A stretch of DNA of 64,000 nt from Pachysolen tannophilus NRRL Y-2460. Taxonomy: Eukaryota. The stretch lies in the NCBI GenBank assembly GCA_001661245.1, contig KV454012.1, positions 588,147 to 652,146 of the forward strand. The letters run 5' to 3'. This document shows positions 8,864 through 61,208 of this stretch, in pieces. The position numbers and the translations under genes are program-made. The notes beneath the pieces were generated by a model, which worked only from the letters and a program-made list of their open reading frames with translations, ran no database searches and was not told the origin of the DNA. The stretch's first letter is position 1. Every line of letters begins with the position of its first letter.

Positions 8864-11800
8864 ATGTCATATACTGTTCATCTCGATGGGTTTGCCTCGA
8901 AGTTGTCTGATCAGTCCACGGACTTTAAGACAAAAACTTCACTTTTGTCAGAATTATGTGATATGATTGAAACTTTTAATGGTACTCAAGAATATGAATA
9001 TTTCTTGAAAACATTGGTACCAATTTTTTTAAATAATTTGGAGAGTGTTCCAATTACTTTTATGAGTAGTACTCATGAGCATAAATTGAGGAATTTAATT
9101 TTGAAAATAATACATAGATCGGCAATGAATGATATTTTTAAGCCTTATGCAAATGATATATTAGAAAGTTTGATGAAATTGTTGAAAACAGAAAATGAAG
9201 AGAATGGAGTATTGTGTATGAAGATAATAACTTCATTGCACAAATCTTATAAGCAAGATTTGGGGGAGAAAGTTGGGCCCTTTGTTGATATTATAGTTGA
9301 GATATACACCAATATGCCACAAGTTGTGGAAGAAACTTTTAATAATCCTAATCTGCAGTCTCAATCTCAATCTCAATCTCAGTCCCAAGCACAGTCGCAG
9401 TCTCCAAATATTAACAACTCAGCTTCATCACCTTTAGCGAACCAATCACCAAGACCACTGTCTCCATCATTATCACCTAATGATGAATCACAAACTAAAA
9501 TATTAGCAAAGTCTATGCATTCTTTCAAGACATTAGCTGAATGTCCCATTACTATGGTGTCGTTATATTCATCATACAGAAACTTGATACAGACTTCAAT
9601 GCCAACGTTCTTACCACATGTCATTGATATTTTGAGCTTGCAAGCAAAGCCTCAACAAGATGCAAGATTGCTGGCAGAACAAAAAAATGAACGTTTAATC
9701 TCTTTAACACCAGCAATTAAAAACAGAGCTGCATTTTGCGACTTTATATTAGGACAAGTCAAGGCTGCATCGTTTGTGGCGTATATTTTCATTCGTGGGT
9801 ATGCACTGAATATAATGACAAATTTTACAGATATTATACCTGATTTAATAATTAGACTATTACAAGATTGTCCTAGTGAACTCTCTGCAGCAAGAAAAGA
9901 ATTATTACATGCAACCAGACATATATTATCTACAAGCTTTAGAACCATGTTTATTCCAAAGATAGATTTGTTATTTGATGATAGAGTTTTAATTGGTGAT
10001 GGTTTAACATCATATGAAACTCTTCGCCCATTGGCATATTCAACAGTGGCAGATTTTATTCATAATGTTAGAGCAGAATTGACACCGGAGCAAATTTGGA
10101 AAACTGTTAGAATATATTGTAAAAACTTACAAGATAGTTCATTAGCTTTAACGGTACAAATCATGAGTGCAAAATTATTGTTGAATCTCGTGGAAAGGGT
10201 AATGAAATTACCATCTAAGCTGGAATCCAGACAGTTATTCATGCTTATTATTGATGCTTATGCCAAGAGGTTTGCAAGCTTGAATAGACAACATGACTAC
10301 ATTATGCATCAACATGATTTATATACTAAAAAAAAACAAGAGAAAGAAAAACTGCAAGAAAATTTATTAGTAAAACGTAACAGTTTAGAACTTTTAAAGA
10401 ACAATCAACAACAAAAGACACTCAAAACTGAAGAAAATGGAACAAAGCAACATGATAAGCTAAATATTGAAGACGTAGAAATGAAACACGCTGATGATGA
10501 ACTGAAAGAAGAAGAAAATAATCATAATCAAGAGGAAGAAAATGAACAACAACAAAAAAATTCCGACGAAAAAATGCAGATTGATGAAGACGGAGATCAG
10601 AATGACGAGAAAATGAATGATGCAGAAGAGTCCACAGAATCTAGAAAAGTGAAATCTGAAGAAAATGAAGAACCAAAACAGGTAAAAAAAATTCAAGAGA
10701 AATTAGAAAAACCTGATTCAGAAGCTGATCAGAAAGAAGAGCTATGTATCTTTAATATAGATCAAGTATCTGCAACCGTAATTGCACCAAAAAGTACAAC
10801 TGATCCATTGAAAGACTCTCGTTATTTATTCAGAACTTTAATGTCATTTTTAAAATCTGTCATTTTTGGATTGAAGAATTGCAATCCATCTCCTCCTTCA
10901 AACGATTATAATTCACAAACTTGGAATAGCTCAGCTAGAATTTTTACAAATGAAGAATTGAATATTTTGAGAAACTTGTATAAGGAAGGAATATCAGGGT
11001 TGAGGTTTTTCAGGAGTTTTAAGCCAACACTTCCACCCCAATTGGCGAAACATTCTTTTGATATCACAGGCCCTAATTTGCCTATCACGTCTTCCAAGGA
11101 TGAAAAAGACTTAATGGAAATATTTGCTACCATGTTCATTCATATAGATCCTGCTACATTCAATGAAATAGTCCAATCTGAGATGCCATTTTTGTATGTT
11201 TCTGTATTAGAAAATGCTGCTTTATTACATATTCCACAATTTTTTTTGGCAAGCGAAATTACAACCTCTAATTTCTCCGGTATATTAATTAGTTTTTTGA
11301 AAACAAAATTACCAGAATTAGGAGAAGTTGATATTATAAAATCCAGTATATTAATGCGTCTCTTCAAATTATGCTTTATGTCGGTTAACTTATTTCCTAG
11401 CGCAAACGAGAGCGTTATTGTACCTCATTTGAATGAATTAATTTTAGACTCTCTAAAATTGACAACGACAGCAAAAGAACCATTAGACTACTTTTATTTA
11501 ATACGAACATTATTTAGAAGTATTGCTGGTGGCAGATTTGAGAATTTGTACAAAGAAATTATGCCACTTTTGCAAGTTTTCTTAGAATCTTTGAGCAGAA
11601 TGATCGAAACGGCAAGAAGACCACACGAGCGTGATATTTACGTTGAATTATGTCTTACAGTCCCAGTTAGACTATGCGTTTTGGTTCCTCATTTGAGTTA
11701 TTTAATGAGACCCTTGGTATATGCTTTAAATGGTTCACAAGAATTAGTTTCTCAAGGTTTGAGAACTTTGGAATTATGCGTAGATAACTTTACTGCTGAA

Positions 11801-14800
11801 TATTTTGATCCGATTATTGAACCGGTCATTGAGGATGTGATGGAAGCGCTTTGGAAACATTTGAGACCCTCTCCATATTTTCATCAGCATTCACATACAA
11901 CATTTCGTATTTTGGGTAAATTGGGAGGAAGAAACCGTAGGTTTTTGAAGCCACCTTCCAATTTGAAAACTGAAGCGGCTGTTTACCAGGAAGTCAATGC
12001 CTTATTTGACATACATGGGATTCCAGATAAAGTTCCAGTTTCAATTACTCCGGGGGTAAATTCTGCTTTATCTTTGTTAATTGATTTACGTCCGAAGATT
12101 CACTACAGAGTCAATGCTTTCAAATATTTAAGTTCAATTTTAAAACTTTTTATTGATACTTCTAATATTCCAGAAAACTACTCTGAAAAAGTTGAAGAAT
12201 GCGTGAATTTTTTGATTCTGGAGCCATCGGCTGAGGATAGTAATGTGGCTTTGCAACCAATCAATGTTAAGGATCCAAGTAAGTTAAATAGACAACAAGA
12301 GTTATTGGAAAGGCTAATAGAAGCCATGTTTTATTCTGTCTCTATTGACGAAATAAAAGAAGAAAGTGAAGAGTTAATTGATGGACTTTGTAAACATATG
12401 ACTTTATTAGCTCTTGCAAGAGCAGCTATTGAAAAACGGAAAGCTGAACGTCCTTTTTCTGTTAATCACTATGAAGGAAAAGTTTTTCTTGATGAACGTG
12501 CACTTTTAAATGCTATTTCATACTCTTTGAGCTTCTATATGGAGGATGTAACAAATTCTGGAATAAAGGCGATCAAAATTATATTTGAGACTAGTGTCAC
12601 AATATTTGGATCGGTTGAAAATGCATTGAAGTTTCCTTTTTTGAAACTAATGTTCAGCACATTTCTTCATAACTGCTATGAAGAAGCTTATTTCACAAAA
12701 CTTGGTGGTTGCATTGGGCTTAAAACGATGATAAATGAGTTGGGAATTCCAATATCATGGGTAGCTGGTCGCCAGAGTGAATTTTGCAGTGCCATGTTTT
12801 TCATCTTACGTGATACACCAGCAGATGTGCCCTCTGAAGTTCGTGATATAGCCAAAAAATTGGTTTTAAAGGTATTGACGGATTGTAACAAAGAAGTATC
12901 TCAAAAAGATGTTTTTGAGCGTCCGTTCCAAATTCTAGTTGGCTTATTAGTCACTGATTTAGCCAATCCATCTCAGATTGTTAGAGAAACTGCTCAAGAA
13001 GCTTTGAATACTTTATCGAAGACCACTCAGGTTCCAGTTGCTGTCTTGATGGATAAATGCAAACATGTTTTACTAGCTCCAATTTTTAGCAAACCGTTAC
13101 GAGCATTACCATTTCCAATGCAAATCGGAAACATTGATGCTATTACATTTTGTTTAGGTCTTGAAAATACTTTTTTGACATTCAATGATGAATTGAACAG
13201 ATTGCTTTCGGAGGCCCTTGCTTTGGTGGATGCTGAAGACGAGTCTTTGATTAGTGCACATCGTATTTATGAGCACAGGACATCGGAGCAACTCATCAAG
13301 CTTCGTGTGGTTTGCATTAAATTGCTTTCGTTAGCTTTGACGAAACCTGATTTTGCTGCTGCCCAACAAGGATCAACTAGAATTCGTGTCTTAGCCGTCT
13401 TCTTCAAGACCTTATGTGCCAAATCTTCGGAAATTATTGATGCATCTCATAATGGTCTTGCTGCTGTATTAGCTCAAAATTCGAAATTACCAAAAGAACT
13501 ATTGCAAAATGGATTACGTCCGATGTTGATGAATTTATCAGACCATAAGAAATTAACTGTTAAGGGGCTCGAAGCGCTTTCGCGTTTACTTGAGCTATTG
13601 ATTTCTTACTTCAAAGTTGAAATTGGTCGTAAATTACTTGACCATTTAATGGCCTGGGCTCAACCAGCTACGCTTCATCAAATAGCTAGTCAAGAATTGG
13701 ACAATAACCCCACTGTAAAAATCATTGTTGCCATTTTGAATATCTTTCATCTTCTACCACCTAAGGCTTATACATTTATGGATGAAATCATGAAAACTCT
13801 ACAGTATCTAGAAGATAACTTGCACCGTCGTCAATACTCGCCGTTTCGTGCTCCGATAGCTAAATTTTTGAACAGATTTTCACAGGAGAGTCTTCAATAT
13901 TTTATTGGTAAATTTGCAACTCGTCCAGTTGGAGCACGGTTTGCTTACTTTGTTGGATTAGAAAGCTGCGATTCACTTCGTACTGCAGTTAAAGAAAATA
14001 TTAATGCTTTCTATCAAAATGTTTCGCAAGAAACAAATAATGATATTAAATGTGTCAAATTTTCTAATTTGGTTGATCTTATTTCTGCCATCTCAGCAAA
14101 TGATAGTGACTGGTTCAAGTCACAGAAAAAATTGCTCTTAGATATTTCTTCAGTGGTAGCAGAGGTTTCGAATATTGAGCTTCTGGCGCCCTTGACTTCC
14201 CCCATCCATTTCTTAGTTAATCAAGGTATTGAAAAATTACAAGAAAATTTTGTTAAATTTTTCTATCTTCAATTAGGAGAAACAGAAGAAGTTATTCTGT
14301 TCATTGATCGCTTATGCACACTTAATATTCCAATATCCTGGGCATTAGAAAATTTTATCTTTGAAAAAGTCATCAAATCTGAAGATGCTGATCTCCGCAA
14401 GCAGTATTTAGTAAAGTCAATTGAATTAGTAACTTCTGAAGAAACATCGTTAAAAACAAGAGTCCACATTTTCAAAAGAATCATTAATTCCATTTTCATT
14501 TATGAAGGCCATAAGAATGGTAATTTGGATGCACTTGTTGAAAGATCTGATGGTTCTGTAAATTCCGAATGGTTAGATCTTATTCATAATAAGATATGGC
14601 GTGCGACTAATAATATTGTAACTATTCATACTGCTGGTAGATCTGATGCTTATAGATTTGAATTATTACAAATGACAGCTGTGTTTATAAAATTTGCTTC
14701 CGATCTTGTTGCTGACTTGCGAAGGGATATGATCAAATTTTGCTGGAACTTCATCAAATTAGAAGACGGTATTACCAAACAAACGGCATATGTTGCTACG

Positions 14801-17800
14801 GCCTATTTTATTGCAGCCTATGACACACCAGTGAAAATTGTTACTCAAGTATTTGTTGCGTTATTGCGTACTCATCTAATTGATACCAGATATCTAGTCA
14901 AACAAGCCCTTGACATATTAGCTCCAGTAATGCCAAAGCGCATGGAAAACACTGGATCTCCTATGAGTTGGTTAAAGTGGCCTCGAAGGGTTATCTCTGA
15001 AGACGGTTTCAATGCAACACAGGTATTGAACGTGTATCAGTTTATTGTTCAGCATTCTGATTTATTCTTTGTTGCTCGTGATCATTTCATACCAAACATA
15101 ATTAATTCTATGGGAAAATTAACAATTTTATCCAACCCTGCTTTGGAGAACCAAATTCTTGCGATTGATCTTGCTCAGCTCATTTTAAACTGGGAGAAAA
15201 AGGCGAAGGAACTAAAACCGGAAAATGCTGATGCAGAGAAAGCTGATGGAAATGCTGAAGCTCTGGAGACGTCAACATCACCATCCGACTCTTTAGATAT
15301 CACTACTCCTAGTTCATATGAGATTCCGTTTGCTCAAAGAGAAGCTTGCATTACGTTTTTAATCAGGTACATCTGTATTAGTCCACAACGTGCTTCGGAG
15401 CATGAACTTGGTCAAAAGGCATTACATATTTTACATGAATTGTTGGGTACTGATTTTTGGCCTGAAGTTACTGTTAAGTTGGCCTTTTTTGAACGTTTTT
15501 TGGTTACAACTGATTTAAATACTAGTAGTTTATTAGGTTATTGCCTCAATGCTCTTGAAGTTCTTACTGTTGCTTTAGAATGGAAGTCTCAAGAATGGAT
15601 CATATCGAACCTTTCGTATCTTGAAAAATTACTAGAAAAATGTTTACGTTCAGACAATCAAGACATCCAAGAAGTTTTGCAACGCGTTTTATCGATAATT
15701 CTTAATGCAATCAACTCTCAGAAAGCATCAGAAGATGAAATGCAATCAGAAGAAATCAAGGCTTTTTTGGCATTGATAGTTAACATTATTTCTGAAGATT
15801 TATCTAATACCTCTTCCGTTGCTGCAGGTGTTACATTATGCTGGACATTGGTTCAATACGATCCGTCATCTTTGGATTCGCTATTACCAACGATCATGCG
15901 TACATTTGGTAGGCTCTGCAAAGATCATATTTCTTTAGCGCATCTGGCACAGTCTCATGACGGTGCAAATGCTTCTTCAACAGATTTTGAAGCTAGGACA
16001 ACAACTCGATTATTAGAGAAAATATTGAATTTAGCTTCAATGAGAATCTCGTACCTTGGAGATCAACGTCGTGTTTTCCTATCCTTGTTAGCACAGTTGA
16101 TTGAAAGGTCTCTTGATAAAGAGACACTTCAAAAAATTATCAAAATCGTTCGAGATTGGGTTTTCACTAAAAACAATCTGTATCCAACAATAAAGGAAAA
16201 AGCTGCTATTTTAACAAAAATGATGGTATTTGAAATTAGAGGTGAACCTTCTTTATCCAACGAATTTTATCAAATTATTGTTGATATATTCGAAGATAAA
16301 TCATTGGCCTGCAGTGAGTTGACTGTTCGTATGGAACAACCATTTTTGGTGGGAACTCGTTTATCAGATGTCAAAATTCGGCAAAAATTGGTTTCTTTGT
16401 TAAATGACAGTTTAGAGGAGGATATCAGTAAAAGGCTTTTTTATATTATTCGTGAACAAAATTGGGAATACCTTGGAGACTATCCTTGGTTGAATCAAGC
16501 TTTACAATTACTTTATGGATCATTTGATTTTGATTATGAACTTAAACTTGAAAATTCTGAGTACAAATTTGCTTCATTATCGGACATTGAAGAAGGATTG
16601 ACTATCAATGAAGTCGATAAAAAAGTTAAGGAGACTATCAAATCTGAATCAACAGAAAGTAATGACAAGACGGTGAAGGATCAGGAGGATTTATCCGAGG
16701 ACAAGAAAACGGATGCAGAAAGTTCTGATCTAAAAGAAAAAGTTGAGGATGTCAATCTGGAAGATAAAGACGAAGATGTAAAGGTTACTACTGAAGAGGA
16801 TGTAACAGAAGAGAAAACTTTGAAGACTAGTGTTATTGATGAAAATGCGAAACTGAAACTTCAGGAGTTTCTAAATAATCATCAGAGCTTTATTAAATCA
16901 ACGAGTTTGCTTAAGACTGGAGATCTCATCGTTCCATTTACTGACCTTTTATATCAGAGTGCAGAAACAATACATGCTGCGTGGGTTAATCTTTTTCCTA
17001 TTGCTTGTTCAAAATCTATTCCTCGTCGTGATGAAATGGACTTCACCCGTTATTTAGTCCAGTTGCTATCTAAGGATTATCATGCTCGTCAACAAGATAG
17101 CCGCCCAAATGTTATTATTTCATTATTGGAAGGAATATCTAAGTGTTCTGAGTTTCAACTACCACCTCACCTAGTAAAATATCTTGGTGTAAACTTTGAT
17201 TCGTGGTACCCAGCAATTAAGATTCTTGAAGATATTGATGCGAACCCAATAGTAGAAAATGATAAGATTCGTCAAACTAATCAAGATGCTCTTCTTGAAA
17301 TGTACTCGAGTTTGCAGGAGGATGATATGTTTTACGGTCTATGGAGAAGACGCGCAAAATATTCTGAGACTAATATTGCTCTTTCATATGAGCAAATTGG
17401 ATTATGGGATAAAGCTATTCAACTTTACGAAGCTGCCCAAATTAAAGCTCGTAGCGGAGTTTTACCTTTTAGCGAATCTGAGTATTCTCTTTGGGAAGAT
17501 AATTGGATTTTATGTGCAGAAAAGTTACAGCATTGGGATATTTTAACCGAACTCGCTAAGCATGAAGGTTTCACTGATTTGTTACTTGAATGTGGCTGGA
17601 GAGTTGCTGATTGGACTGCTGATAGGGAACCTCTTGAGCAAGCTGTAAAAACTGTTATGGATGTTCCTACTCCACGTCGTCAAGTTTTTCAAACTTTCTT
17701 ATGTTTACAAGGATTTGCGCAACAGAAGGATACATTGCAGGAAGTATCTCGATACTGCGATGAAGGTATTCAGTTGGCATTGCGTAAATGGCATTCTTTG

Positions 17801-20632
17801 CCTGAACGATTTACAAATGCGCATGTGGCTCTATTACATACCTTTCAACAATATGTTGAGTTTATGGAAGCTAGTCAAGTTTATGGTAGCCTTTCGACTA
17901 CTAGTGCTCAAAATCTAGACGTGAAATCACAGGAGCTCAAGCGTGTATTACAAGCTTGGCGTGAGCGTTTGCCAAACACTTGGGATGACATAAACATCTG
18001 GAATGATCTTGTAACTTGGCGTCAGCATGCATTTGGAGTTATTAATCGTGTTTATATGCCGTTTATTCCAGCATTACAACAGGCAAATGGAAATAACAAT
18101 GCCAATTCATACGCTTATCGTGGATATCACGAAATTGCTTGGGTTATAAATAGATTCGCTCATGTTGCCCGGAAACATGATATGCCAGAAGTCTGTATAA
18201 ATCAATTAACTAAAATTTATACACTTCCAAATATTGAGATTCAAGAAGCTTTTTTGAAGCTTAGGGAACAAGCAAAATGTCATTATCAAAACGAGAACGA
18301 ATTAAATACTGGTCTAGATGTCATTAGTAATACTAATCTTGTTTATTTTGCAACCCAGCAAAAAGCTGAATTTTTCACATTGAAGGGAATGTTTTTAGCT
18401 AAGTTAAATGTTATGGAGGAGGCCAATCAAGCTTTTGCCACAGCGGTTCAAATTGATTTGAATTTGCCAAAAGCATGGGCTGAATGGGGGTTTTTCAACG
18501 ATCGAAGATTCAAAGAAAATCCTAATGAAATATTTTATGCAAACAATGCAATCAGCTGCTACTTACAGGCTGCTGGTCTCTATAAATGTGGTAAGACAAG
18601 AAAATTGCTCAGTAGAATTCTTTGGCTTGTCAGCTTAGATGATGCTACAGGAACCTTAGCTTCTGCTTTTGAAACTTACCGCGGAGAAGTTCCAGTTTGG
18701 TATTGGATTACATTTATCCCACAATTGTTGACATCATTGTCGCATAAAGAAGCTAGATTGGTACGTCAAGTTTTGATCAATATTGCGAGAACATATCCCC
18801 AAGCTTTACATTTTCAACTTAGGACCACTAAGGAGGATTTTGCTGTTATCAAAAGAGACGTCACAGCCCGTCAAACACCAACTAACCCTACCGATGGTGA
18901 TGGTAATGCTGGTCAATCACAAACAGGAACACCACAACTTGGGCAGGCTACTCCTCATGCTGCTTCTATTGGGTTTAGTCCAATTGGTTCTCGTCAACCA
19001 TGGGAACATGTTGAAGAAATTATGGGTATTTTGAAAACGGCTTATCCTCTACTTGCTCTTTCTTTAGAGTCATTAGTGGATCAAATTACGCAAAGATTCA
19101 AATGCAGTAGTGATGAAGATGTTTACAGACTTGTTGTTGCATTGTATAATGATGGTGTTTCATACCTCAACCGTTTAGGAAATCCAACTCAAGATGCTAA
19201 ATTACCTCCTTCTACTGAAGTTAATATTAGTAAATTTGCTGACACTGTTCTACCAAGAAATATCAGAGCAGAATTTGAACAAGATGTTATAACAAGTAAA
19301 CCAAATTTGGAAACTTATATATCGAAATTGAGGAGATGGCGTGATCGTATGGAATTGAAGTTGGATAGAAGATTTAACAAGATTAACTTAGAAATTTTAT
19401 GTCCACATCTTAGCGAATTCCATCACAAGAAATTTGAGTATATCGAAATTCCTGGACAATATTTATTAAATAAAGACAACAATAGCCATTTTATAAAAAT
19501 TGAACGGTTCTTCCCTGTGGTCGATTTAGTTCGTGGTCCGGCTTCGTGTTACAAACGGTTGACAATTCGTGGTCATGACGGTAGTTTACATCCATTCGCT
19601 GTACAATTCCCGGCTGCACGCCATTGTCGTCGTGAAGAACGTATTTTCCAGCTCTTCCGCATATTTAACGAAGCTTTGTCGAGTAAAGTTCAGACTCGTC
19701 GTCGTAATATTCAATTTACTTTACCAACTGCTGTTCCATTATCTCCTCATATCCGTATTATGACAGATGATAAGAGATATGTTAATATGTTATCGATTTA
19801 TGAAGAGTACTGTCGTCAAAATAATCAAAGCCGTGATGAACCACTTGCTTATACTATTCAAAAATTACGTGCTGCTTTTGACCCACGTTTACCAAAACCT
19901 GATTTAATCAGTATAAGGACAGAAATTTTAGCTGCTATCCAATCATTATTGGTTCCAGGTACAGTTCTAAAAGATTATTTCACAAAATTGTATCCAAAAT
20001 TTGAGGATTTCTGGTTATTTCGGAAACAGTTTACTTCGCAATATGCAACATTCATCTTCACTACTTATATGATGTCCATAAATAGTCGTCAACCTCAAAA
20101 AATCCATATAAACCATGGATCTGGTAATATTTGGACTTCTGAAATGCTTCCATGTAAGATTGCTTGTGGAAGGACTACCAGTACAGCTTTCAAAGATAGT
20201 ACTTTGGATATCTCGAATCAACGTGCTGCTCCTTTATTACATAACGCAGAACCTATTCCGTTCCGTTTAACACCTAATATTCAGAAACTTATTGGTGAAG
20301 CTGGATTAGAGGGTATATTATCTGTCAATGTTTTAACCATTGCCAACAGTCTTTCAGATCCAGATTTTGATATGGAACAATATCTTAGTTTGTTTGTGCG
20401 TGACGAAATTATTTCTTGGTTTACTCAACAACATCGTCCAAGTGCTCAAGATCCGCAATTACGTGAAATTGTTAGAGTTAATGTAGAGCTACTTGTCAAG
20501 CGTGTTCTGCAACTTGGAAGTCAAGGTACAAAACCTGGAGTTGCTTCGCAATTTGTTTTAGATTTGATTGCCCAGGCAGTCAATCCTCGTAATCTTGCCG
20601 CAATTGATACTTTATGGATGTCATATCTTTAG
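8864..20632 (+). CDS. TRA1: Tra1/TRRAP pseudo-PIKK subunit of SAGA and NuA4
   Basis: 3922-aa HEAT-FAT-PI3K-like-FATC protein; RPLAYSTVADFIH, QFPAARHCRREER, PFRLTPNIQ, C-terminal PRNLAAIDTLWMSYL. Confidence 0.98.
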   Translation: MSYTVHLDGFASKLSDQSTDFKTKTSLLSELCDMIETFNGTQEYEYFLKTLVPIFLNNLESVPITFMSSTHEHKLRNLILKIIHRSAMNDIFKPYANDILESLMKLLKTENEENGVLCMKIITSLHKSYKQDLGEKVGPFVDIIVEIYTNMPQVVEETFNNPNLQSQSQSQSQSQAQSQSPNINNSASSPLANQSPRPLSPSLSPNDESQTKILAKSMHSFKTLAECPITMVSLYSSYRNLIQTSMPTFLPHVIDILSLQAKPQQDARLLAEQKNERLISLTPAIKNRAAFCDFILGQVKAASFVAYIFIRGYALNIMTNFTDIIPDLIIRLLQDCPSELSAARKELLHATRHILSTSFRTMFIPKIDLLFDDRVLIGDGLTSYETLRPLAYSTVADFIHNVRAELTPEQIWKTVRIYCKNLQDSSLALTVQIMSAKLLLNLVERVMKLPSKLESRQLFMLIIDAYAKRFASLNRQHDYIMHQHDLYTKKKQEKEKLQENLLVKRNSLELLKNNQQQKTLKTEENGTKQHDKLNIEDVEMKHADDELKEEENNHNQEEENEQQQKNSDEKMQIDEDGDQNDEKMNDAEESTESRKVKSEENEEPKQVKKIQEKLEKPDSEADQKEELCIFNIDQVSATVIAPKSTTDPLKDSRYLFRTLMSFLKSVIFGLKNCNPSPPSNDYNSQTWNSSARIFTNEELNILRNLYKEGISGLRFFRSFKPTLPPQLAKHSFDITGPNLPITSSKDEKDLMEIFATMFIHIDPATFNEIVQSEMPFLYVSVLENAALLHIPQFFLASEITTSNFSGILISFLKTKLPELGEVDIIKSSILMRLFKLCFMSVNLFPSANESVIVPHLNELILDSLKLTTTAKEPLDYFYLIRTLFRSIAGGRFENLYKEIMPLLQVFLESLSRMIETARRPHERDIYVELCLTVPVRLCVLVPHLSYLMRPLVYALNGSQELVSQGLRTLELCVDNFTAEYFDPIIEPVIEDVMEALWKHLRPSPYFHQHSHTTFRILGKLGGRNRRFLKPPSNLKTEAAVYQEVNALFDIHGIPDKVPVSITPGVNSALSLLIDLRPKIHYRVNAFKYLSSILKLFIDTSNIPENYSEKVEECVNFLILEPSAEDSNVALQPINVKDPSKLNRQQELLERLIEAMFYSVSIDEIKEESEELIDGLCKHMTLLALARAAIEKRKAERPFSVNHYEGKVFLDERALLNAISYSLSFYMEDVTNSGIKAIKIIFETSVTIFGSVENALKFPFLKLMFSTFLHNCYEEAYFTKLGGCIGLKTMINELGIPISWVAGRQSEFCSAMFFILRDTPADVPSEVRDIAKKLVLKVLTDCNKEVSQKDVFERPFQILVGLLVTDLANPSQIVRETAQEALNTLSKTTQVPVAVLMDKCKHVLLAPIFSKPLRALPFPMQIGNIDAITFCLGLENTFLTFNDELNRLLSEALALVDAEDESLISAHRIYEHRTSEQLIKLRVVCIKLLSLALTKPDFAAAQQGSTRIRVLAVFFKTLCAKSSEIIDASHNGLAAVLAQNSKLPKELLQNGLRPMLMNLSDHKKLTVKGLEALSRLLELLISYFKVEIGRKLLDHLMAWAQPATLHQIASQELDNNPTVKIIVAILNIFHLLPPKAYTFMDEIMKTLQYLEDNLHRRQYSPFRAPIAKFLNRFSQESLQYFIGKFATRPVGARFAYFVGLESCDSLRTAVKENINAFYQNVSQETNNDIKCVKFSNLVDLISAISANDSDWFKSQKKLLLDISSVVAEVSNIELLAPLTSPIHFLVNQGIEKLQENFVKFFYLQLGETEEVILFIDRLCTLNIPISWALENFIFEKVIKSEDADLRKQYLVKSIELVTSEETSLKTRVHIFKRIINSIFIYEGHKNGNLDALVERSDGSVNSEWLDLIHNKIWRATNNIVTIHTAGRSDAYRFELLQMTAVFIKFASDLVADLRRDMIKFCWNFIKLEDGITKQTAYVATAYFIAAYDTPVKIVTQVFVALLRTHLIDTRYLVKQALDILAPVMPKRMENTGSPMSWLKWPRRVISEDGFNATQVLNVYQFIVQHSDLFFVARDHFIPNIINSMGKLTILSNPALENQILAIDLAQLILNWEKKAKELKPENADAEKADGNAEALETSTSPSDSLDITTPSSYEIPFAQREACITFLIRYICISPQRASEHELGQKALHILHELLGTDFWPEVTVKLAFFERFLVTTDLNTSSLLGYCLNALEVLTVALEWKSQEWIISNLSYLEKLLEKCLRSDNQDIQEVLQRVLSIILNAINSQKASEDEMQSEEIKAFLALIVNIISEDLSNTSSVAAGVTLCWTLVQYDPSSLDSLLPTIMRTFGRLCKDHISLAHLAQSHDGANASSTDFEARTTTRLLEKILNLASMRISYLGDQRRVFLSLLAQLIERSLDKETLQKIIKIVRDWVFTKNNLYPTIKEKAAILTKMMVFEIRGEPSLSNEFYQIIVDIFEDKSLACSELTVRMEQPFLVGTRLSDVKIRQKLVSLLNDSLEEDISKRLFYIIREQNWEYLGDYPWLNQALQLLYGSFDFDYELKLENSEYKFASLSDIEEGLTINEVDKKVKETIKSESTESNDKTVKDQEDLSEDKKTDAESSDLKEKVEDVNLEDKDEDVKVTTEEDVTEEKTLKTSVIDENAKLKLQEFLNNHQSFIKSTSLLKTGDLIVPFTDLLYQSAETIHAAWVNLFPIACSKSIPRRDEMDFTRYLVQLLSKDYHARQQDSRPNVIISLLEGISKCSEFQLPPHLVKYLGVNFDSWYPAIKILEDIDANPIVENDKIRQTNQDALLEMYSSLQEDDMFYGLWRRRAKYSETNIALSYEQIGLWDKAIQLYEAAQIKARSGVLPFSESEYSLWEDNWILCAEKLQHWDILTELAKHEGFTDLLLECGWRVADWTADREPLEQAVKTVMDVPTPRRQVFQTFLCLQGFAQQKDTLQEVSRYCDEGIQLALRKWHSLPERFTNAHVALLHTFQQYVEFMEASQVYGSLSTTSAQNLDVKSQELKRVLQAWRERLPNTWDDINIWNDLVTWRQHAFGVINRVYMPFIPALQQANGNNNANSYAYRGYHEIAWVINRFAHVARKHDMPEVCINQLTKIYTLPNIEIQEAFLKLREQAKCHYQNENELNTGLDVISNTNLVYFATQQKAEFFTLKGMFLAKLNVMEEANQAFATAVQIDLNLPKAWAEWGFFNDRRFKENPNEIFYANNAISCYLQAAGLYKCGKTRKLLSRILWLVSLDDATGTLASAFETYRGEVPVWYWITFIPQLLTSLSHKEARLVRQVLINIARTYPQALHFQLRTTKEDFAVIKRDVTARQTPTNPTDGDGNAGQSQTGTPQLGQATPHAASIGFSPIGSRQPWEHVEEIMGILKTAYPLLALSLESLVDQITQRFKCSSDEDVYRLVVALYNDGVSYLNRLGNPTQDAKLPPSTEVNISKFADTVLPRNIRAEFEQDVITSKPNLETYISKLRRWRDRMELKLDRRFNKINLEILCPHLSEFHHKKFEYIEIPGQYLLNKDNNSHFIKIERFFPVVDLVRGPASCYKRLTIRGHDGSLHPFAVQFPAARHCRREERIFQLFRIFNEALSSKVQTRRRNIQFTLPTAVPLSPHIRIMTDDKRYVNMLSIYEEYCRQNNQSRDEPLAYTIQKLRAAFDPRLPKPDLISIRTEILAAIQSLLVPGTVLKDYFTKLYPKFEDFWLFRKQFTSQYATFIFTTYMMSINSRQPQKIHINHGSGNIWTSEMLPCKIACGRTTSTAFKDSTLDISNQRAAPLLHNAEPIPFRLTPNIQKLIGEAGLEGILSVNVLTIANSLSDPDFDMEQYLSLFVRDEIISWFTQQHRPSAQDPQLREIVRVNVELLVKRVLQLGSQGTKPGVASQFVLDLIAQAVNPRNLAAIDTLWMSYL

Positions 20633-30362: not shown

Positions 30363-31553
30363 ATGTCATTGACGAGTTTTGACATATTTTTGCCGCTACC
30401 TTTTAGAATATTATTTTTGGTGACATTAGCTACATGGCTTTGGGCAATCAATTTAAAAATATGTTATGATCATAATATTGATACATTTCAGGTACTAAAG
30501 TTGCAACCTTCACAACCTGTAAATCTGTCGACGAATTTTTACAAGAAACCAATAAAAGTTAGTTCAATAACAATATTAAATTATATAATATATTTGACAT
30601 TTAAAAATTTATATTTAAGTGATGTTGGTAATGGAATTACAATACTTGATTGTTTCAGTTATTTTAATTTAATTTTAATATTTCTGACATTAATTCTCCC
30701 CATAAATAAGTCACCTTCAAATTTAAGATTATATCAAACTTTTAAAAGAATATTATTTTTTGGTAAAATTGATATAAATTTGAGAAATAATGATATTCTC
30801 TTGGCTGATACTTTTACATCTTATTCAAAAATTTTGGTTGATCTTCATGTTTTGAATTGTAATTTCATTAAAAATAAGACTTTATTACCAAATTTATCAA
30901 AAGATGAAAATACTTTGGATAGATCAATTGGTTCAGTTTATTGTACAGATTTAATAATAGGTTGTATTCCTTCTACAATTAGACTTAAACAATGTCTTTA
31001 TGAATATAGTGAAACTAAAAAAATACAACATTTATTAAATCTGATCAAATATAGTACAAATTATTTACCAATGTTTCTGACAATATATATGAGACAAAAT
31101 AATAATGATGGAATTTTATTTTGGTACCTGTTCAGTTTTATAAATTCATTTTATTCATTTGTTTGGGATGTAATGGTTGATTGGAATTTTGAATTTTTCC
31201 ATTATGTCTTATCTGCAGATCGTAGACAAAAATATTTGTTAAGAAGTATATTAATGTATAACGTTAGTTTTTATTATCATGTATCAATAATGGTAGATTT
31301 CATATTAAGGTTCATTTGGGTATTAAGAATGTTTAGTAATCCTGATAGTAAATATTTATTATTAAGATCATTTGATTCAGAAGGTGGATTATTTTTATTG
31401 GAAATCTTGGAAATTTTAAGACGTTGGATTTGGGTTTTCATTAAAATTGAAACAGAGTATATTAAGATGTTCAATGGAGATATCAATAAGTTGAGAGACA
31501 TTGATGAAGATAAAGGTACAATCGAAATGGATTCATATAATAAAAAATATTAA
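30363..31553 (+). CDS. ERD1: EXS-domain protein Erd1
   Basis: PLPFRI, NDILLADTFTSYSK, IRLKQCL, YSFVWDVMVDW, EILRRWIWVFIKIETE; no SPX domain. Confidence 0.9.
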   Translation: MSLTSFDIFLPLPFRILFLVTLATWLWAINLKICYDHNIDTFQVLKLQPSQPVNLSTNFYKKPIKVSSITILNYIIYLTFKNLYLSDVGNGITILDCFSYFNLILIFLTLILPINKSPSNLRLYQTFKRILFFGKIDINLRNNDILLADTFTSYSKILVDLHVLNCNFIKNKTLLPNLSKDENTLDRSIGSVYCTDLIIGCIPSTIRLKQCLYEYSETKKIQHLLNLIKYSTNYLPMFLTIYMRQNNNDGILFWYLFSFINSFYSFVWDVMVDWNFEFFHYVLSADRRQKYLLRSILMYNVSFYYHVSIMVDFILRFIWVLRMFSNPDSKYLLLRSFDSEGGLFLLEILEILRRWIWVFIKIETEYIKMFNGDINKLRDIDEDKGTIEMDSYNKKY

Positions 31554-35089: not shown

Positions 35090-35334
35090 NNNNNNNNNNN
35101 NNNNNNNNNNNNNNNNNNNNNNNNNNNNNNNNNNNNNNNNNNNNNNNNNNNNNNNNNNNNNNNNNNNNNNNNNNNNNNNNNNNNNNNNNNNNNNNNNNNN
35201 NNNNNNNNNNNNNNNNNNNNNNNNNNNNNNNNNNNNNNNNNNNNNNNNNNNNNNNNNNNNNNNNNNNNNNNNNNNNNNNNNNNNNNNNNNNNNNNNNNNN
35301 NNNNNNNNNNNNNNNNNNNNNNNNNNNNNNNNNN
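35090..35334. other. Assembly gap
   Basis: N-run between poly-A tracts. Confidence 0.99.
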
Positions 35335-37171: not shown

Positions 37172-38782
37172 ATGTCGAATAGTTTTAATAATGGATATAT
37201 TCCAGCTGAGCAGTTGTCGTCGTCGTCGTCATATGCCCAGACACAGACAGATTTCTACTCGCAGTCCCAGCAACAACAACAACAACAACAGCTGCAGCAG
37301 CATCTGCTGCTGCAAGCACAATTCTCTCAACCCCAAGTTAATCTGTACTTGAACTATTATAATACTGCCAATGCCAGTGCTAATACGAGTGCAAGTGGAA
37401 GTGGAAGCGGAACTGGCGGTGTGTATAGTGGAAATAGTAGTTACTCGAATCTTCCTCAACAGCAGCAGCAGCTGCTGCTGCAACAACTGCAACAACTGCA
37501 ACTTCAACCGCAAAACCAGATATGGATGGGAGATTTGGATCCATGGTGGGATGAAAGTACTATAAAGCAAATATGGGCATCTGTGGGAGAAACTGGCTTG
37601 ATACAAGTGAAATTGATTTATAATAAAAATTTGCATGCAAATCAAACGAGTAATAATGCTAATTCAGGGTATTGTTTCTTAACTTTTAATAGTTATCAAT
37701 CAGCTCTGGAACTGTTGCTTAAAAATGGAACTGTGATCCCTGGAACTTCAAAATTGTTTAAATTGAATTGGGCATCGGCAGGACAACAACAATCGCAGCA
37801 GTCACAACAATCCCAACAATCCCAACAACTGCATTTACAACATCAACAGCAATCTCCAGATTATTCGATATTTGTTGGAGATCTTGCACCAGATGTCAAT
37901 GATAAGATATTGTACGATTTTTTCCTGTCACAATACCCTTCATGTTCAAATGTCAAGATTATGATAGATCAATTAACAGGAAATTCAAGAGGTTATGGTT
38001 TCGTAAAATTTAATACAGAATTAGATCAAAATAAGGCATTATTGGAAATGCAAGGTGCAATTCTTCATGGAAGACCAATAAGAGTTTCTACAGCAACTAA
38101 AAATACTATAGTTGGAAATAATAGTAATAATAGTAATTCTGTTGGTGCTGGAAGAAATTTACAAAATTTAAATAATTTTTCTCAAAATCAACAAGTGCAA
38201 CAAAGTCTGTTACTGCAACAGCAGCAGCAACAACATTTGAAAACTAATGTTCCTCTGCAACAATTTAACCCACAGGTATCTCCATTCACCGACTCCAATA
38301 ATACTACTGTTTTCATTGGTGGTTTGAATGTTCCAATTTCAGCTGAAGAACTTAGATCTTATTTCAGTAAATTTGGTGATATTGTTTATGTCAAAGTTTT
38401 GGATGGTAAAAATTGTGGGTTTGTACAATACGTTCATAGAATTGATGCTGAAAAACTGATGATCGAAATGCAAGGCTTTCCAATTGGAGGTTCTCGTATG
38501 AGGCTAGCATGGGGTCAAAAGTATAGTCAACAACAACAGCAATTGCAACAGCAGAGGCAAGCATTGGCTACAAGTCTTGGTATAAATAGCACTTCAACTA
38601 CTGCTGGTGCTACCAATAATAACAATATTACTTATATGGGCCCTAATGTTTCCAATATAGGATTAAATCAAGGAGATGTCAAAAGTAACCCTTCAACTGG
38701 TTACAGCAACTCGGATTTAAATGATATGTATTTAGCGGCAAAAGAGTTCAAGTTGGATAGATTAAATCTTTTTAATAATTGA
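37172..38782 (+). CDS. NAM8: Three-RRM U1 snRNP-associated protein Nam8
   Basis: WMGDLDPWWDE..QIWASVGE, GYCF, LLKNG..KLNWA, SIFVGDLAPDV, NNTTVFIGGL, MQGFPI; Q-rich tracts; closer to Nam8 than to Ngr1. Confidence 0.88.
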   Translation: MSNSFNNGYIPAEQLSSSSSYAQTQTDFYSQSQQQQQQQQLQQHLLLQAQFSQPQVNLYLNYYNTANASANTSASGSGSGTGGVYSGNSSYSNLPQQQQQLLLQQLQQLQLQPQNQIWMGDLDPWWDESTIKQIWASVGETGLIQVKLIYNKNLHANQTSNNANSGYCFLTFNSYQSALELLLKNGTVIPGTSKLFKLNWASAGQQQSQQSQQSQQSQQLHLQHQQQSPDYSIFVGDLAPDVNDKILYDFFLSQYPSCSNVKIMIDQLTGNSRGYGFVKFNTELDQNKALLEMQGAILHGRPIRVSTATKNTIVGNNSNNSNSVGAGRNLQNLNNFSQNQQVQQSLLLQQQQQQHLKTNVPLQQFNPQVSPFTDSNNTTVFIGGLNVPISAEELRSYFSKFGDIVYVKVLDGKNCGFVQYVHRIDAEKLMIEMQGFPIGGSRMRLAWGQKYSQQQQQLQQQRQALATSLGINSTSTTAGATNNNNITYMGPNVSNIGLNQGDVKSNPSTGYSNSDLNDMYLAAKEFKLDRLNLFNN

Positions 38783-38878
38783 AAGGAAGAAGGAAAAATA
38801 AAATATAAAAAATAAAAAATAAAAAAAAAAAAAAAAAAAGAAAAAAGAAAGAATTTTTTTTTTTTTTTTAAATTTCTT

Positions 38879-39287
38879 NNNNNNNNNNNNNNNNNNNNNN
38901 NNNNNNNNNNNNNNNNNNNNNNNNNNNNNNNNNNNNNNNNNNNNNNNNNNNNNNNNNNNNNNNNNNNNNNNNNNNNNNNNNNNNNNNNNNNNNNNNNNNN
39001 NNNNNNNNNNNNNNNNNNNNNNNNNNNNNNNNNNNNNNNNNNNNNNNNNNNNNNNNNNNNNNNNNNNNNNNNNNNNNNNNNNNNNNNNNNNNNNNNNNNN
39101 NNNNNNNNNNNNNNNNNNNNNNNNNNNNNNNNNNNNNNNNNNNNNNNNNNNNNNNNNNNNNNNNNNNNNNNNNNNNNNNNNNNNNNNNNNNNNNNNNNNN
39201 NNNNNNNNNNNNNNNNNNNNNNNNNNNNNNNNNNNNNNNNNNNNNNNNNNNNNNNNNNNNNNNNNNNNNNNNNNNNNNNNNNNNNNN
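38879..39287. other. Assembly gap whose flanks overlap
   Basis: N-run with AAAAAGAAAGAATTT..TAAATTTC on both sides. Confidence 0.97.
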
Positions 39288-44200: not shown

Positions 44201-46399
44201 TCATATCAATTGGTTATACAAGATCATCAAGCTTTTAGAAGGAAAAAATGGAGATATATGATTTTGGATGAGGCACATAATATTAAAAACTTTAGATCTC
44301 AAAGATGGCAAGCATTATTAAATTTTAATACTGAGAATAGATTGTTATTAACTGGTACTCCTTTACAAAATAATATTATGGAATTATGGTCTTTGTTATA
44401 TTTTTTAATGCCTTCATCGAAAGCTTCTCAGTCAATGCCTGCCGGTTTTGCAAATTTACAAGATTTCCAACAATGGTTTGGCAGACCTGTTGATAAAATA
44501 ATTGAAGCAGGAGGTGATACTTCAGCAGATGCTGATGACGAAACTAAAAAGACTGTGGCCAAGTTACATCAAGTTTTAAGGCCATATTTACTTAGAAGGT
44601 TAAAGGCAGATGTGGAGAAACAAATGCCAGCAAAATACGAGCATATTATTTATTGTCGTTTATCTAAAAGACAACGATATTTATATGATGATTTCATGTC
44701 GAGGGCTCAAACAAAGGAAACTTTGGCATCTGGTAATTTTCTTTCAATCATTAATTGTTTAATGCAATTGAGAAAAGTTTGTAATCACCCTGATTTGTTT
44801 GAAGTCAGACCTATTGTTACATCATTGGCGATTAGAAAATCTGTTGTTTCAGATTTTGATATGAAGGAGTTGGTTGTTAGGAGAAATTTGCGAGAAAATG
44901 ATGATACTAAAGTTGATCTATCAGTCGTTAATTTGATACCAACAATTAATGAATCAATTTCTACTTGGAATGCAACATCAAGTTCATCTTTGAATGCTAA
45001 TAAATATTTAAAACAAGATTGCCTGAAATTGGAAGATGTTCTTAACAAAACAGAAGTCCAAGAAGATTATACACATTTGAACTCATATTACCAATTTTTG
45101 AAGTATAAAGAGCAGCGTGAAGCCTTAGATCATAGCGAGCAATTACTTTATTTGAACAATTTGAGATGTGAAAGAAATCCAATATATGGTTCAAATTTGA
45201 TTAATATGTTGTCTATAACAGAAATAAATGGTCCTTCAAATGAGAAAACTTCAAAAGCATATCAAGATATTGTTAAGCCATTGAATACCAGAATCTCAAT
45301 GATGTACAACACGATTGAGAAGTACGCTTTTGTTACACCTGCTGTTGTAGCTTTAAATATGAAGAATTATGTTTTACCAAACGAAAGTTTGAGAGCTGAA
45401 ATGATGAATACAAATAGCGGAATTGAAAATCCATTTCATCATTCTCAAGTTAAATTGACAATTGCCTTCCCAGACAAGAGTTTATTACAATATGACTGTG
45501 GTAAATTACAGAAATTGGCATCTTTACTTCTTGAATTGAAACTGAATGGTCATAGAGCTTTGATTTTTACTCAAATGACTAAAGTATTGGATATTTTGGA
45601 ATTGTTTTTAAATTACCATGGTTATAGATATATGAGATTAGATGGTGCTACTAAGATTGAAGACCGTCAAATTTTAACCGAAAGGTTTAATACAGATCCT
45701 AGAATAACTTGTTTCATATTGTCGACTAGATCTGGTGGTCTTGGTATCAATTTAACGGGTGCAGATACTGTTATCTTTTATGATTCTGATTGGAATCCAG
45801 CTATGGATAAACAATGTCAAGATAGATGTCATAGGATTGGTCAAACAAGAGATGTTCATATTTACAGATTTGTTTCCCAATATACAATAGAATCAAACAT
45901 TTTGAAGAAGGCAAATCAAAAGAGACAATTAGATAATGTTGTTATTCAAGAAGGTGATTTTACAACAGATTATTTTGGAAAACTTTCTGTCAAAGATTTA
46001 ATTGGTGAAGAAGTTCCTATAGAAGGAGACAATACAATAGCTAAACCATTGATTCCTGTTGCAGATACAGATAATAAAGATTTTACATCTGTGTTGGCTC
46101 AAGCAGAAGATGAGGATGACGCAGCTGCTGCAAATGCTGCCATTAAGGAAGTTGAAGTGGATGATGCAGATTTTGAAGAAAGTGGTATGAAGTCAAATGG
46201 AGAAAATACTCCAGGAAATGATACAAGTAATTCTATTACTAGAAAGCCCACTACACCACTTCCTGGTGATAATAGAAAAGAACAACCAGAAAATATTAAA
46301 GAAGAAGAATATGGCGAGGAGATGTCGGACGACGATGACGTTGGTCACATTGATGAATATATGATCAGGTTTATTGATCAGGGCTACTATTGGGAATAA
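41277..46399 (+). CDS. SWR1: Swr1 Snf2-family ATPase, with an apparent 1-nt frameshift at the A7 run 41601-41607
   Basis: HSA-like region, GILADEMGLGKT, DEAHNIKNF, split-ATPase insert, QYDCGKLQ, DWNPAMDKQCQDRCHRIGQ; one extra A joins ORF 41277-41627 to the main frame. Confidence 0.93.
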
Positions 46400-47792: not shown

Positions 47793-50258
47793 TTACCTAC
47801 TATTTTTAGTTTTAGTTCTGAAAAGTCCATTGATAACTGAAGAAGTTCTTTTAATTAAGTTTGGTCCTGAATTTTTCCGTTTTAATACTTTTGAATTGTT
47901 ATCATCATCGGTATTAAATTCAGTACTATCAGTCTTTAATCTAGCACTCTTAATTCTATTATTATTTTTGTCATCATTTTTCAAATCATATGATGATACT
48001 AAAGTCATTGAACTATCACTATCTAATCTCTGTTTTTCATTCCCATATTTGGATTTTCTTCTTCTAATTGTACCATGATTAGATCCAATTTTTCTTTCAG
48101 ATAAGAGAAAAGGTAATTCTTCTTTACTCCAGATATTTTCCAACTTCAATTCAACTGCTAATCTTTCACTGCTTTTAATTTTAACCATATGAGATACACA
48201 ATTGAAAACTGGAACTGTGTTAACCTCTTCTTTATCTCTCCATGTATCGTTATCATCTTCATAATATTTTAATGTTGAAAAATGTTGGATTCTAATTGGA
48301 ATTAATTCTTCAAAATAACAATTGTTGAAATTATTTCTAAAACTTCCAATTTTACTTGAAACTAATTTATCAAGTGAAACATCTACTGGAATAAGATTGT
48401 TAGGATATTTTGTCATACTTCTAATGTCTTTTTGCCAATCTGAAAAAGAATAGTCAAATTTATAAGGTCCATTAACATAATTGATTAAAATATCCAATTG
48501 AGTTATCCATTCAGTTGTTTCTCTTTCATTTACAGCAAAAAACAGTACTTCATATAATGAATATCTATCTTCAAAGACCAATTTAAAACTAAATTCATAA
48601 TTTGATGTTAACCCATCTCCATTAGATTTAGCATATGGGACAATCTTACAACCAGCCAAGGGAATTATAAATTTTATCTCCCAACTATTCAGCTTACTGC
48701 ATGTAGATAAGATCAAATGTGATTTAAAAAGAAAACATCCTAAATATTGAGATTCAATCAGTTTATTTGAAACAACCCATATACATTCTAAACCACCACA
48801 TAGTATAACGTTACCAAAAATATGGAATGGGAAATGGCGATGATCTTGTTCATTATTTTCACGAAATCTTTGGTTTAATGCTAGATTATTAGCATCACAA
48901 GAATTCAAGAAATTGAATAACAAATTAGTTTTTTTTATAACAACTTGTCTACTATTCACATTTGAATTAAGTTGATCTAATTGTCTTTTTAAATCTTCCA
49001 AATTTAATGAAACCAGATTGTAAGTCTGTTGATCTTCTTCTGGAATTATTGTTTTCAATAATGAATCTAAAAGTAATTTATATTTGGGGATTCTTGCAAT
49101 TGGTTTTTGAAATAAAGAAATAAATGATAAATCCATTTTTTGACCTGCAATTTGAGCTGATTCAATAAATCTCAGACAACCATCAGCCCAACAATCCAAT
49201 TTATCATCGGTAAAGACATTTTTGTTTTCATTTGAAGGGCCTAATAATTCCAAAACTTGATCGTATATTAAACAATATTCTTCATAAATATAAGTGCATA
49301 CAGCATTTTTGACAATCAAATCTGAAAATTTTTTCGTTATTAATGGATCTGATGTGGATATGTAACGACGATTTTCTTCTTCTTTTGAAGAAGTTGTATT
49401 AGAAGCAGCAGAGCCCGGGGAAAGAATTAGTGAAGGACTATTTAAAAGGTTTGATACAAAACGAAGTTGTGAACTGGTAATACCACCATCATGACCATAA
49501 TAACTCTTTGTAGTTTTCAGTGCATTCGTAAATAGCGTTTTGAGTTGATCCAAAAAAGAGCTGTGGTTTTCAATTAAAATTTCAACGTATTTTTCACCAT
49601 AAACCATTGGAGAACAAACTGATTTTTCATTTGCTGCAAGTAATGGCTTGATATAACTTGTAGATAACAAGATCAAAGAGTCCAAATAATTTTCTTCAGT
49701 TTCTATTAATTCTTCAATAAGTTTTTGTCTTTGATAAGCTCTTTTGGAAACAATATTCTCCGAATAAACGTAATGATCTGAAAGCACTGGTGAAGTTATC
49801 GTCGAATATGAATAATTTGAAACAGGACTAGAATCATCGGCAATATGTTTCTTAATGTCAGATGAAATAGGTCCTCCAAAATTTAAAAATGAAGGCTCTG
49901 TAAGTTGAAGCTTATTATCGTTTGTCAGTTTAAATGAATCATTCAGCGTAACACTAATGGCTTCTGAAAAATTCTCCGATTGAATGCCACCACCACCACC
50001 AGTTAAAGAGGTATTATTTATATCCTTAGGTACAAGTTCTTTAAATTCTCCAGAAATTTTTATTGATGATTTACCATTCTCCGTTTTCTTTATATGTGAA
50101 TGTGAGCTTTCCAACCTTTTATTTTGCAGCAAATGGGTATAGGGATTGGTAACCATAAAAGGGGTACTGTGATTAAGTTGAAATAAAGAAGCTGGTGACA
50201 AAAACAAGTTGTTTGGTGTCGACTCTGAAGAGTAAACTTCAAAACTAGGCTTAGACAT
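47793..50258 (-). CDS. Dbl-family RhoGEF (DH + PH)
   Basis: KLIEELIETEENYLDSL (DH CR1), QKPIARIPKYKLLL (CR3), followed by a PH-like region (FLFKSHLIL..EWITQL). Confidence 0.85.
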   Translation of the reverse strand: MSKPSFEVYSSESTPNNLFLSPASLFQLNHSTPFMVTNPYTHLLQNKRLESSHSHIKKTENGKSSIKISGEFKELVPKDINNTSLTGGGGGIQSENFSEAISVTLNDSFKLTNDNKLQLTEPSFLNFGGPISSDIKKHIADDSSPVSNYSYSTITSPVLSDHYVYSENIVSKRAYQRQKLIEELIETEENYLDSLILLSTSYIKPLLAANEKSVCSPMVYGEKYVEILIENHSSFLDQLKTLFTNALKTTKSYYGHDGGITSSQLRFVSNLLNSPSLILSPGSAASNTTSSKEEENRRYISTSDPLITKKFSDLIVKNAVCTYIYEEYCLIYDQVLELLGPSNENKNVFTDDKLDCWADGCLRFIESAQIAGQKMDLSFISLFQKPIARIPKYKLLLDSLLKTIIPEEDQQTYNLVSLNLEDLKRQLDQLNSNVNSRQVVIKKTNLLFNFLNSCDANNLALNQRFRENNEQDHRHFPFHIFGNVILCGGLECIWVVSNKLIESQYLGCFLFKSHLILSTCSKLNSWEIKFIIPLAGCKIVPYAKSNGDGLTSNYEFSFKLVFEDRYSLYEVLFFAVNERETTEWITQLDILINYVNGPYKFDYSFSDWQKDIRSMTKYPNNLIPVDVSLDKLVSSKIGSFRNNFNNCYFEELIPIRIQHFSTLKYYEDDNDTWRDKEEVNTVPVFNCVSHMVKIKSSERLAVELKLENIWSKEELPFLLSERKIGSNHGTIRRRKSKYGNEKQRLDSDSSMTLVSSYDLKNDDKNNNRIKSARLKTDSTEFNTDDDNNSKVLKRKNSGPNLIKRTSSVINGLFRTKTKNSR

Positions 50259-60579: not shown

Positions 60580-61208
60580 TTACTTCAAATTAGCATTGAT
60601 GTGCAATTCCGAGGCCGGCTTGGTAACAGCTCCTAGCAACAAGTCAATCACAGCCTTTTTATTCTTCAGCGCAGTGGCTTCAAGTTTGGCTATTTCAGTT
60701 GCAGCTTCTTTCTCAGCATCAGCATCAGCAGTGACATTTTCACCTGAGTGCTATTCATAAAAAAAAATAAATTAATAAATTAAAAACTTGTTAGTTTAGG
60801 AGCAAAAAATAAAATAAGATAATAAGACCTCCATCAATTGAATCAATAAACTCACCTCAGCTTCAAATTTCTTAAGTTCTTGCTCTTTCTTTGATTTGTA
60901 TGCTTCAATTTCTTTAGCAGCATCAGCCTTTGCATCTTTCAACTTTTGAGCACGGTCTACATCACAATTATCAATATAATACATTAGTATTCGCCACATC
61001 TCAATAACAAAACACCAGATTCCCTATCTTTGAGAAGAAAAAAGTTATCTATACTTACAAGCTCTAGCCTCTGAAACTATTTCATGAGCTTCTTTCTCGG
61101 CTTTTAAAAGAGTTTGAATTCCTGACTATCATAAAGTGTTAGTAAAAAAAAAAAAAAAAACAACATCCAGCAAATAGATCCATCACCACTCTACTTTCAA
61201 CATACCAT
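60580..61208 (-). CDS. VMA10: V-ATPase subunit G, four exons (61206-61208, 61059-61125, 60856-60956, 60580-60750)
   Basis: Splices to MSGIQTLLKAEKEAHEIVSEARAYRAQKLKDAK...ELHINANLK; 5' sites GTATGT, GTAAGT and GTGAGT. Confidence 0.93.

Follow-up and report, generated by a model that had tools for sequence, protein, structure and literature searches.

Results

The window, by which we mean the whole 64-kb stretch of DNA that was analysed, is a budding-yeast nuclear locus with a G+C content of 30.5%. It contains 24 ORFs of at least 150 codons, most of which receive a name from Pfam: two hexose transporters, ArgRS, Fcf1, Tra1, a ZNF598/Hel2-like protein, Pol eta, an EXS-family protein, Nop12, a three-RRM protein, NDUFB8/NIAM, Swr1, a RhoGEF, an amidase, the mitochondrial RRF, an aldehyde dehydrogenase, Ipi1, a Tcf25/Rqc1-like protein and Bcd1. 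Together, these 24 ORFs harbor 78 CTG codons. This density of approximately 3.3 per ORF agrees with the genome-wide value of approximately 3.2 per protein published for Pachysolen tannophilus NRRL Y-2460, in which 16,824 CUG positions were counted in 5288 predicted proteins (PMC4937558). The CTG codons discussed below lie mainly in the Tra1 ORF (8864..20632, + strand, 3922 codons, 16 CTG), the Nam8-like ORF (37172..38782, + strand, 536 codons, three RRM domains, 18 CTG), the EXS-family ORF (30363..31553, + strand, 5 CTG), the RhoGEF/PH ORF (47793..50258, − strand, 821 codons, 9 CTG), the hexose transporter ORFs HXT-A (3-1688, + strand) and HXT-B (3220-4974, + strand), and Swr1 (41801-46399, + strand). 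Others are found in the Hel2-like, Pex, Nop12, RRF, Tcf25-like and Bcd1 ORFs, and in the ORF at 21329-21883.

Several further features of the locus deserve mention. The two hexose transporters are tandem paralogues with 64% identity across 565 residues. The genes for Pol eta and EXS flank a C/D-box snoRNA that matches Rfam snR67 (29481-29569, + strand, 71.2 bits against a gathering score of 55). No tRNA gene was found within the 64-kb window by ARAGORN or by Rfam at gathering thresholds. There are two runs of N, at 35090-35334 (245 bases) and 38879-39287 (409 bases). A 189-codon ORF on the − strand (38762-39331) crosses the second of these. As Pfam matches nothing in it, this ORF probably exists only because the N run is translated. 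The + strand carries an ORF with an FHA domain (32982-33587) and, 400 bases further downstream, a second ORF (33990-34595) that matches the protein kinase model at its C-terminal positions 99-263 of 263 alone. The two look like parts of one Rad53/Dun1-type checkpoint kinase gene with an intron or a frame break between them. Likewise, a RING-finger ORF (25554-26108, − strand) covers only positions 134-212 of 214, the tail end, in the N-terminal model for Pex2/Pex12, and the first part of this gene must be upstream, in another exon or frame. Finally, the RhoGEF/PH protein has 27 relatives besides itself at E ≤0.001, three of them yeast-like with 30-37% identity and the others from Fusarium, a distribution that appears unusually lineage-restricted for an 821-codon yeast gene.

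CTG codons in Nam8 face alanines of S. cerevisiae Nam8

The initial annotation had proposed that CTG is read as Ala in this DNA, on the strength of six codons in four genes, all of which we find to be in frame. The most informative are in the Nam8-like ORF, whose best match among solved structures is Saccharomyces cerevisiae Nam8 (chain 5zwn_V, E 4e-77). Three of its CTG codons, 179 (37706..37708), 181 (37712..37714) and 429 (38456..38458, in helix 2 of the third RRM), all on the + strand, are each opposite an Ala in that protein. The homologous residues given in the initial annotation agree with the real Nam8 and HXT sequences. Among 120 homologues, column 429 is Ala in 119 and a gap in one, with no Leu and no Ser, and column 181 is Ala in 76, Val in 36, Ile in six and Gln in two, again with neither Leu nor Ser. 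Column 179 is more mixed, with Ser in 59, Ala in 27, Thr in 12 and other residues in the rest. The Ser count at this last column would suit a serine reading of CTG, to which columns 181 and 429 are opposed, as they are to a leucine reading.

Ten of the 18 CTG codons in the Nam8-like ORF are inside N-terminal Q-rich tracts, amid CAA and CAG codons and in runs resembling (CAG)n(CTG)n. As had been anticipated, these tracts, which are Q/L by the standard reading, become Q/A when translated with table 26. At 37283-37318 and 37460-37500, the CAA/CAG runs adjoin CTG runs (e.g., CAGCAGCAGCAG then CTGCTGCTG), and the two kinds of run are self-complementary.

CTG codons in other genes are opposite diverse residues

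In the hexose transporters, HXT-B codon 399 (4414..4416, + strand) faces an Ala in HXT-A, as the initial annotation had it, and HXT-A codon 46 (138..140, + strand), absent from that annotation, faces an Ala in HXT-B. Both alignable CTG codons of the pair are thus opposite an Ala of the other copy, and the third is opposite a gap. In the solved transporters STP10, GlcP and STP6, the residues in column 399 are Ile, Ala and Ile, respectively.

The last two of the six codons, for which a small residue had been thought a better fit than Leu, bear out only half of that claim. A PDB search with Swr1 codons 1200-1400 alone aligned codon 1248 (45542..45544, + strand) with Asp in S. cerevisiae Swr1, Ala in human SRCAP and Glu in an Ino80. 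The CTG in the last exon of Vma10, the V-ATPase subunit G (60667..60669, which reads CAG on the + strand and is an in-frame CTG of this − strand gene), faces a Glu of S. cerevisiae subunit G (3j9t_L). Neither site is Leu, and the residues found there are not consistently small. Both are exposed, variable positions, and they speak against Leu without speaking specifically for a small residue. Swr1 has further CTG codons at 164, 166, 436, 489 and 1075.

A similar diversity is seen elsewhere. Amidase codon 351 is opposite Ala, Leu and Ala in three different solved relatives; NIAM codons 55, 84 and 86 are opposite Pro and Pro, Gln, Asp, His and Leu, and Asp, Leu and Ile, respectively, in solved structures; and Rad30 codons 397 and 401 are opposite Ser (in S. 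cerevisiae) and Tyr. In the EXS family, the column of codon 227 is Ala in 94 of 149 homologues, and Leu is the commonest residue at codons 55, 239 and 256 (44, 58 and 49 of 149, respectively). Among the Tra1 columns, that of codon 2439 is strongly Leu (98 of 118 homologues), that of codon 2361 is strongly Gln (91 of 118), and several contain Ser at moderate frequency.

Conservation across four families excludes leucine

The six codons of the initial annotation turn out to be a favourable selection, but in the pooled evidence the signal is still above chance. Following its suggestion that the code be inferred from columns of homologues, we scaled the Codetta approach down to four families, Tra1, Nam8, EXS and RhoGEF, with 118 of 120, 119 of 120, 149 of 150 and 27 of 28 homologues, respectively. 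Proteins of the species itself and of one close relative (P0002 and P0122) were excluded. For columns with at least 70% occupancy, log-odds of the weighted column frequencies were summed for each amino acid. For 60 of the 61 sense codons, the standard residue had the best score, and that score was large and positive. Leu was recovered in this way for CTA, CTC, CTT, TTA and TTG, and Ala for each of the four GCN codons. The sole exception was CTG. Its scores over 27 columns were −3.5 for Gln, −4.5 for Ala, −11.9 for Ser and −23.1 for Leu. When RhoGEF was omitted, the remaining 23 columns gave +2.9 for Ala, −6.7 for Gln, −8.4 for Ser and −20.5 for Leu.

The score for Leu is far outside what a Leu codon would produce. 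When sets of 27 ordinary Leu codons were sampled at random in these genes, they had a mean Leu score of +43.8 (SD 5.5, minimum +19.5), and none of 20,000 draws was as low as the −23.1 of CTG. CTG therefore does not act as a Leu codon here, and Leu is excluded. Ser is disfavoured by the same test, at 7 to 11 units under Ala. Ala is favoured, to a degree that is moderate on 27 columns and, in so small a sample, not decisive over Gln: it ranked first in nine of nine parameter settings with three families and in three of nine with four families, being about one unit from Gln in the other six. The inference by homologue columns thus delivered the rejection of Leu outright and a first place for Ala in three families that becomes a tie with Gln in four. 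RhoGEF is thinly sampled, its 27 relatives being mostly from Fusarium, and it is the four usable columns of this family that shift the score of CTG toward Gln.

The residues in the CTG columns were also compared with the background. Ala is 2.5-fold enriched over all columns (mean homologue frequency 0.169 vs. 0.067) and Gln 2.4-fold, whereas Leu (0.127 vs. 0.124) and Ser (0.083 vs. 0.079) are at background. A simple majority count points the other way: in the well-occupied columns of the four families, the commonest homologue residue is Ala in five of 27 and Leu in six of 27. Where conservation at a CTG is clearest, however, the column is one of Ala.

CTG sites are variable and are not typical alanine sites

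CTG codons occupy an unusual set of positions. In the four genes, only 27 of 48 (56%) are in well-occupied columns, compared with 86% of all codons, and mean column entropy is 2.41 bits for CTG, 1.00 for Leu codons and 1.49 for GCN codons. Random sets of 27 GCN codons had a mean Ala score of +35.2 (SD 6.7), and none of 20,000 draws came down to the −4.5 of CTG. The Tra1 relative P0002, which is 75% identical, has Leu at 414 of 465 ordinary Leu codons and Ala at 190 of 256 GCN sites. At the 16 CTG sites, it has Ala at two and Leu at one. Because the Ala score of CTG is so far below the GCN draws and P0002 has Ala at only two of these 16 sites, CTG sites are not typical Ala sites.

Deposited proteins of the strain already read CTG as alanine

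The best hit of the Tra1 ORF is a protein deposited for the strain (PACTADRAFT_39977 [Pachysolen tannophilus NRRL Y-2460]), to which it is identical at 3760 of 3776 aligned residues. Fifteen of the 16 differences are CTG codons, Leu by table 11 and Ala in the record, and the last coincides with a splice junction in the gene model as deposited. The database proteins that match the RhoGEF and EXS ORFs differ from the table 11 translation solely at CTG, where they always have Ala (nine of nine and five of five, respectively). The window is therefore DNA of P. tannophilus NRRL Y-2460, whose public annotation already reads CTG as Ala. These residues reflect the annotators' choice of table and are therefore not independent evidence for the alanine reading.

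Separately, the deposited Tra1 model (3776 aa) omits three in-frame stretches, 9395-9454, 10631-10795 and 16613-16825 (60, 165 and 213 bases, respectively), which are open in the window, within the single 3922-codon ORF, and encode low-complexity, charged sequence. The sole tallied codon within them, 2632, is opposite a gap in 118 of 118 homologues. The omitted stretches may be lineage-specific insertions that were mis-modelled as introns, or they may be true in-frame introns.

Discussion

In this report, we analysed a yeast locus in which CTG stands apart from every other sense codon. We are close to certain that the window is P. tannophilus nuclear DNA, that CUG is read by an alanine tRNA with its anticodon mutated to CAG, and that every CTG specifies Ala, as in translation table 26. 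An alanine tRNA altered in this way would read CUG and would insert Ala at every CTG codon. The evidence has two sources. The behaviour of the columns comes from the window, whose homologues reject Leu and favour Ala. The tRNA and the mass-spectrometric proof come from the literature: the same strain has an alanine-type tRNA(CAG) bearing G3:U70 and A73, and of 907 CUG positions with full support in LC-MS/MS, 97.2% were Ala, according to Muhlhausen et al. 2016 (PMC4937558). A second report of CUG-Ala from 2016 is cited as references 11 and 12 in PMC5951914, where the Ala clade is given as Pachysolen, Nakazawaea and Peterozyma. NCBI translation table 26 carries the label "Pachysolen tannophilus nuclei: CTG=A". 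The assignment made in the initial annotation, which also named the right group of organisms and the right table, is thus amply borne out by published work. Organism, codon and reading are all the same as in the window, with no difference between the two. CUG-Ala here is already known and nothing in our data goes beyond the published code; the code change, the tRNA and the proteomic proof for this strain have all been in print since 2016, so that nothing is added as a discovery. In the library searched, no paper was found that mentions both Codetta and Pachysolen.

Three other readings of CTG were weighed against the alanine code, and each of them seems to us to have a very small probability. 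The first is that CTG is decoded ambiguously, for instance as Ala with a little Leu, or that it stands for some other residue, e.g., Gln. With four families, Gln and Ala are tied in our test, ten of the Nam8 CTG codons are within Q-rich tracts, and in the published data the peptide matches are ambiguous at eight CUG positions and other than Ala at 18 (PMC4937558). However, the Gln signal comes mostly from Tra1 codon 2361 and the thin RhoGEF family, and is gone when the latter is omitted. Moreover, CAG is one base from CTG, so that Q-rich surroundings would be expected by mutation alone. As for the deviant peptide matches, they are reported to be equally frequent at AUG, and the authors of that study deemed CUG unambiguous (PMC4937558). 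A straightforward Gln reading, which depends on a single Tra1 column and one thin family and contradicts the published mass spectrometry (PMC4937558), was rejected.

The second reading, CTG as Ser, is known from other budding yeasts and is scarcely credible for this one. In the Ser1 (Candida, table 12) and Ser2 (Ascoidea, Saccharomycopsis) clades, CUG has likewise been reassigned through a tRNA whose anticodon is mutated, and it is rare and found at poorly conserved sites (PMC5951914), much like the variable CTG columns of the window. Nam8 column 179, Rad30 codon 397 and the moderate Ser frequency in several Tra1 columns are in keeping with such a reading. Unlike in the Ser clades, however, Ser scores well under Ala with either three or four families and is without enrichment at CTG columns, it is absent from the two Nam8 columns in which Ala is the predominant residue, and P. 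tannophilus is placed outside the Ser clades (PMC5951914). The third reading, that CTG is Leu as in the standard code and that chance substitution at variable positions accounts for the Ala matches, has practically nothing left to it: Leu is commonest at six CTG columns, Tra1 2439 among them, and one solved amidase has Leu at codon 351, but the Leu score is unlike that of true Leu codons, the other five Leu codons all score strongly as Leu, Leu is at background in CTG columns and occurs in none of 120 homologues at Nam8 181 and 429, P0002 keeps Leu at one CTG site out of 16 compared with 414 of 465 ordinary Leu sites, and the reading was already refuted by mass spectrometry (PMC4937558).

With CTG read as Ala, the peculiar distribution of the codon still calls for an explanation, which the history of the reassignment may provide. 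Reassigned CUG codons are described as rare and as favouring poorly conserved or poorly aligned regions (PMC5951914). In the window, CTG sites would be variable and Q-rich because most CTG codons would postdate the reassignment and would have appeared where an Ala can be accommodated. They could have re-arisen by single-base changes from neighbouring codons, the likely sources being CAG (Gln), GTG (Val), CCG (Pro), and TTG or CTN (Leu). The Nam8 N-terminus, with its ten CTG codons amid CAA and CAG, would be a plain example.

It is also conceivable, if unlikely, that a minority of the CTG codons are survivors of the ancestral CUG-Leu set and not new Ala codons. The candidates are the six of 27 CTG columns in which Leu is commonest, above all Tra1 2439. 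The case is weakened by P0002, the closest relative, which has Pro and not Leu at this position. If such survivors did exist, CUG would never have been wholly purged before its capture by the alanine tRNA, and some conserved Leu sites would have been forced to Ala. As regards annotation, every CTG-bearing gene in the window needs table 26, and the 78 codons counted in the 24 ORFs are all affected.
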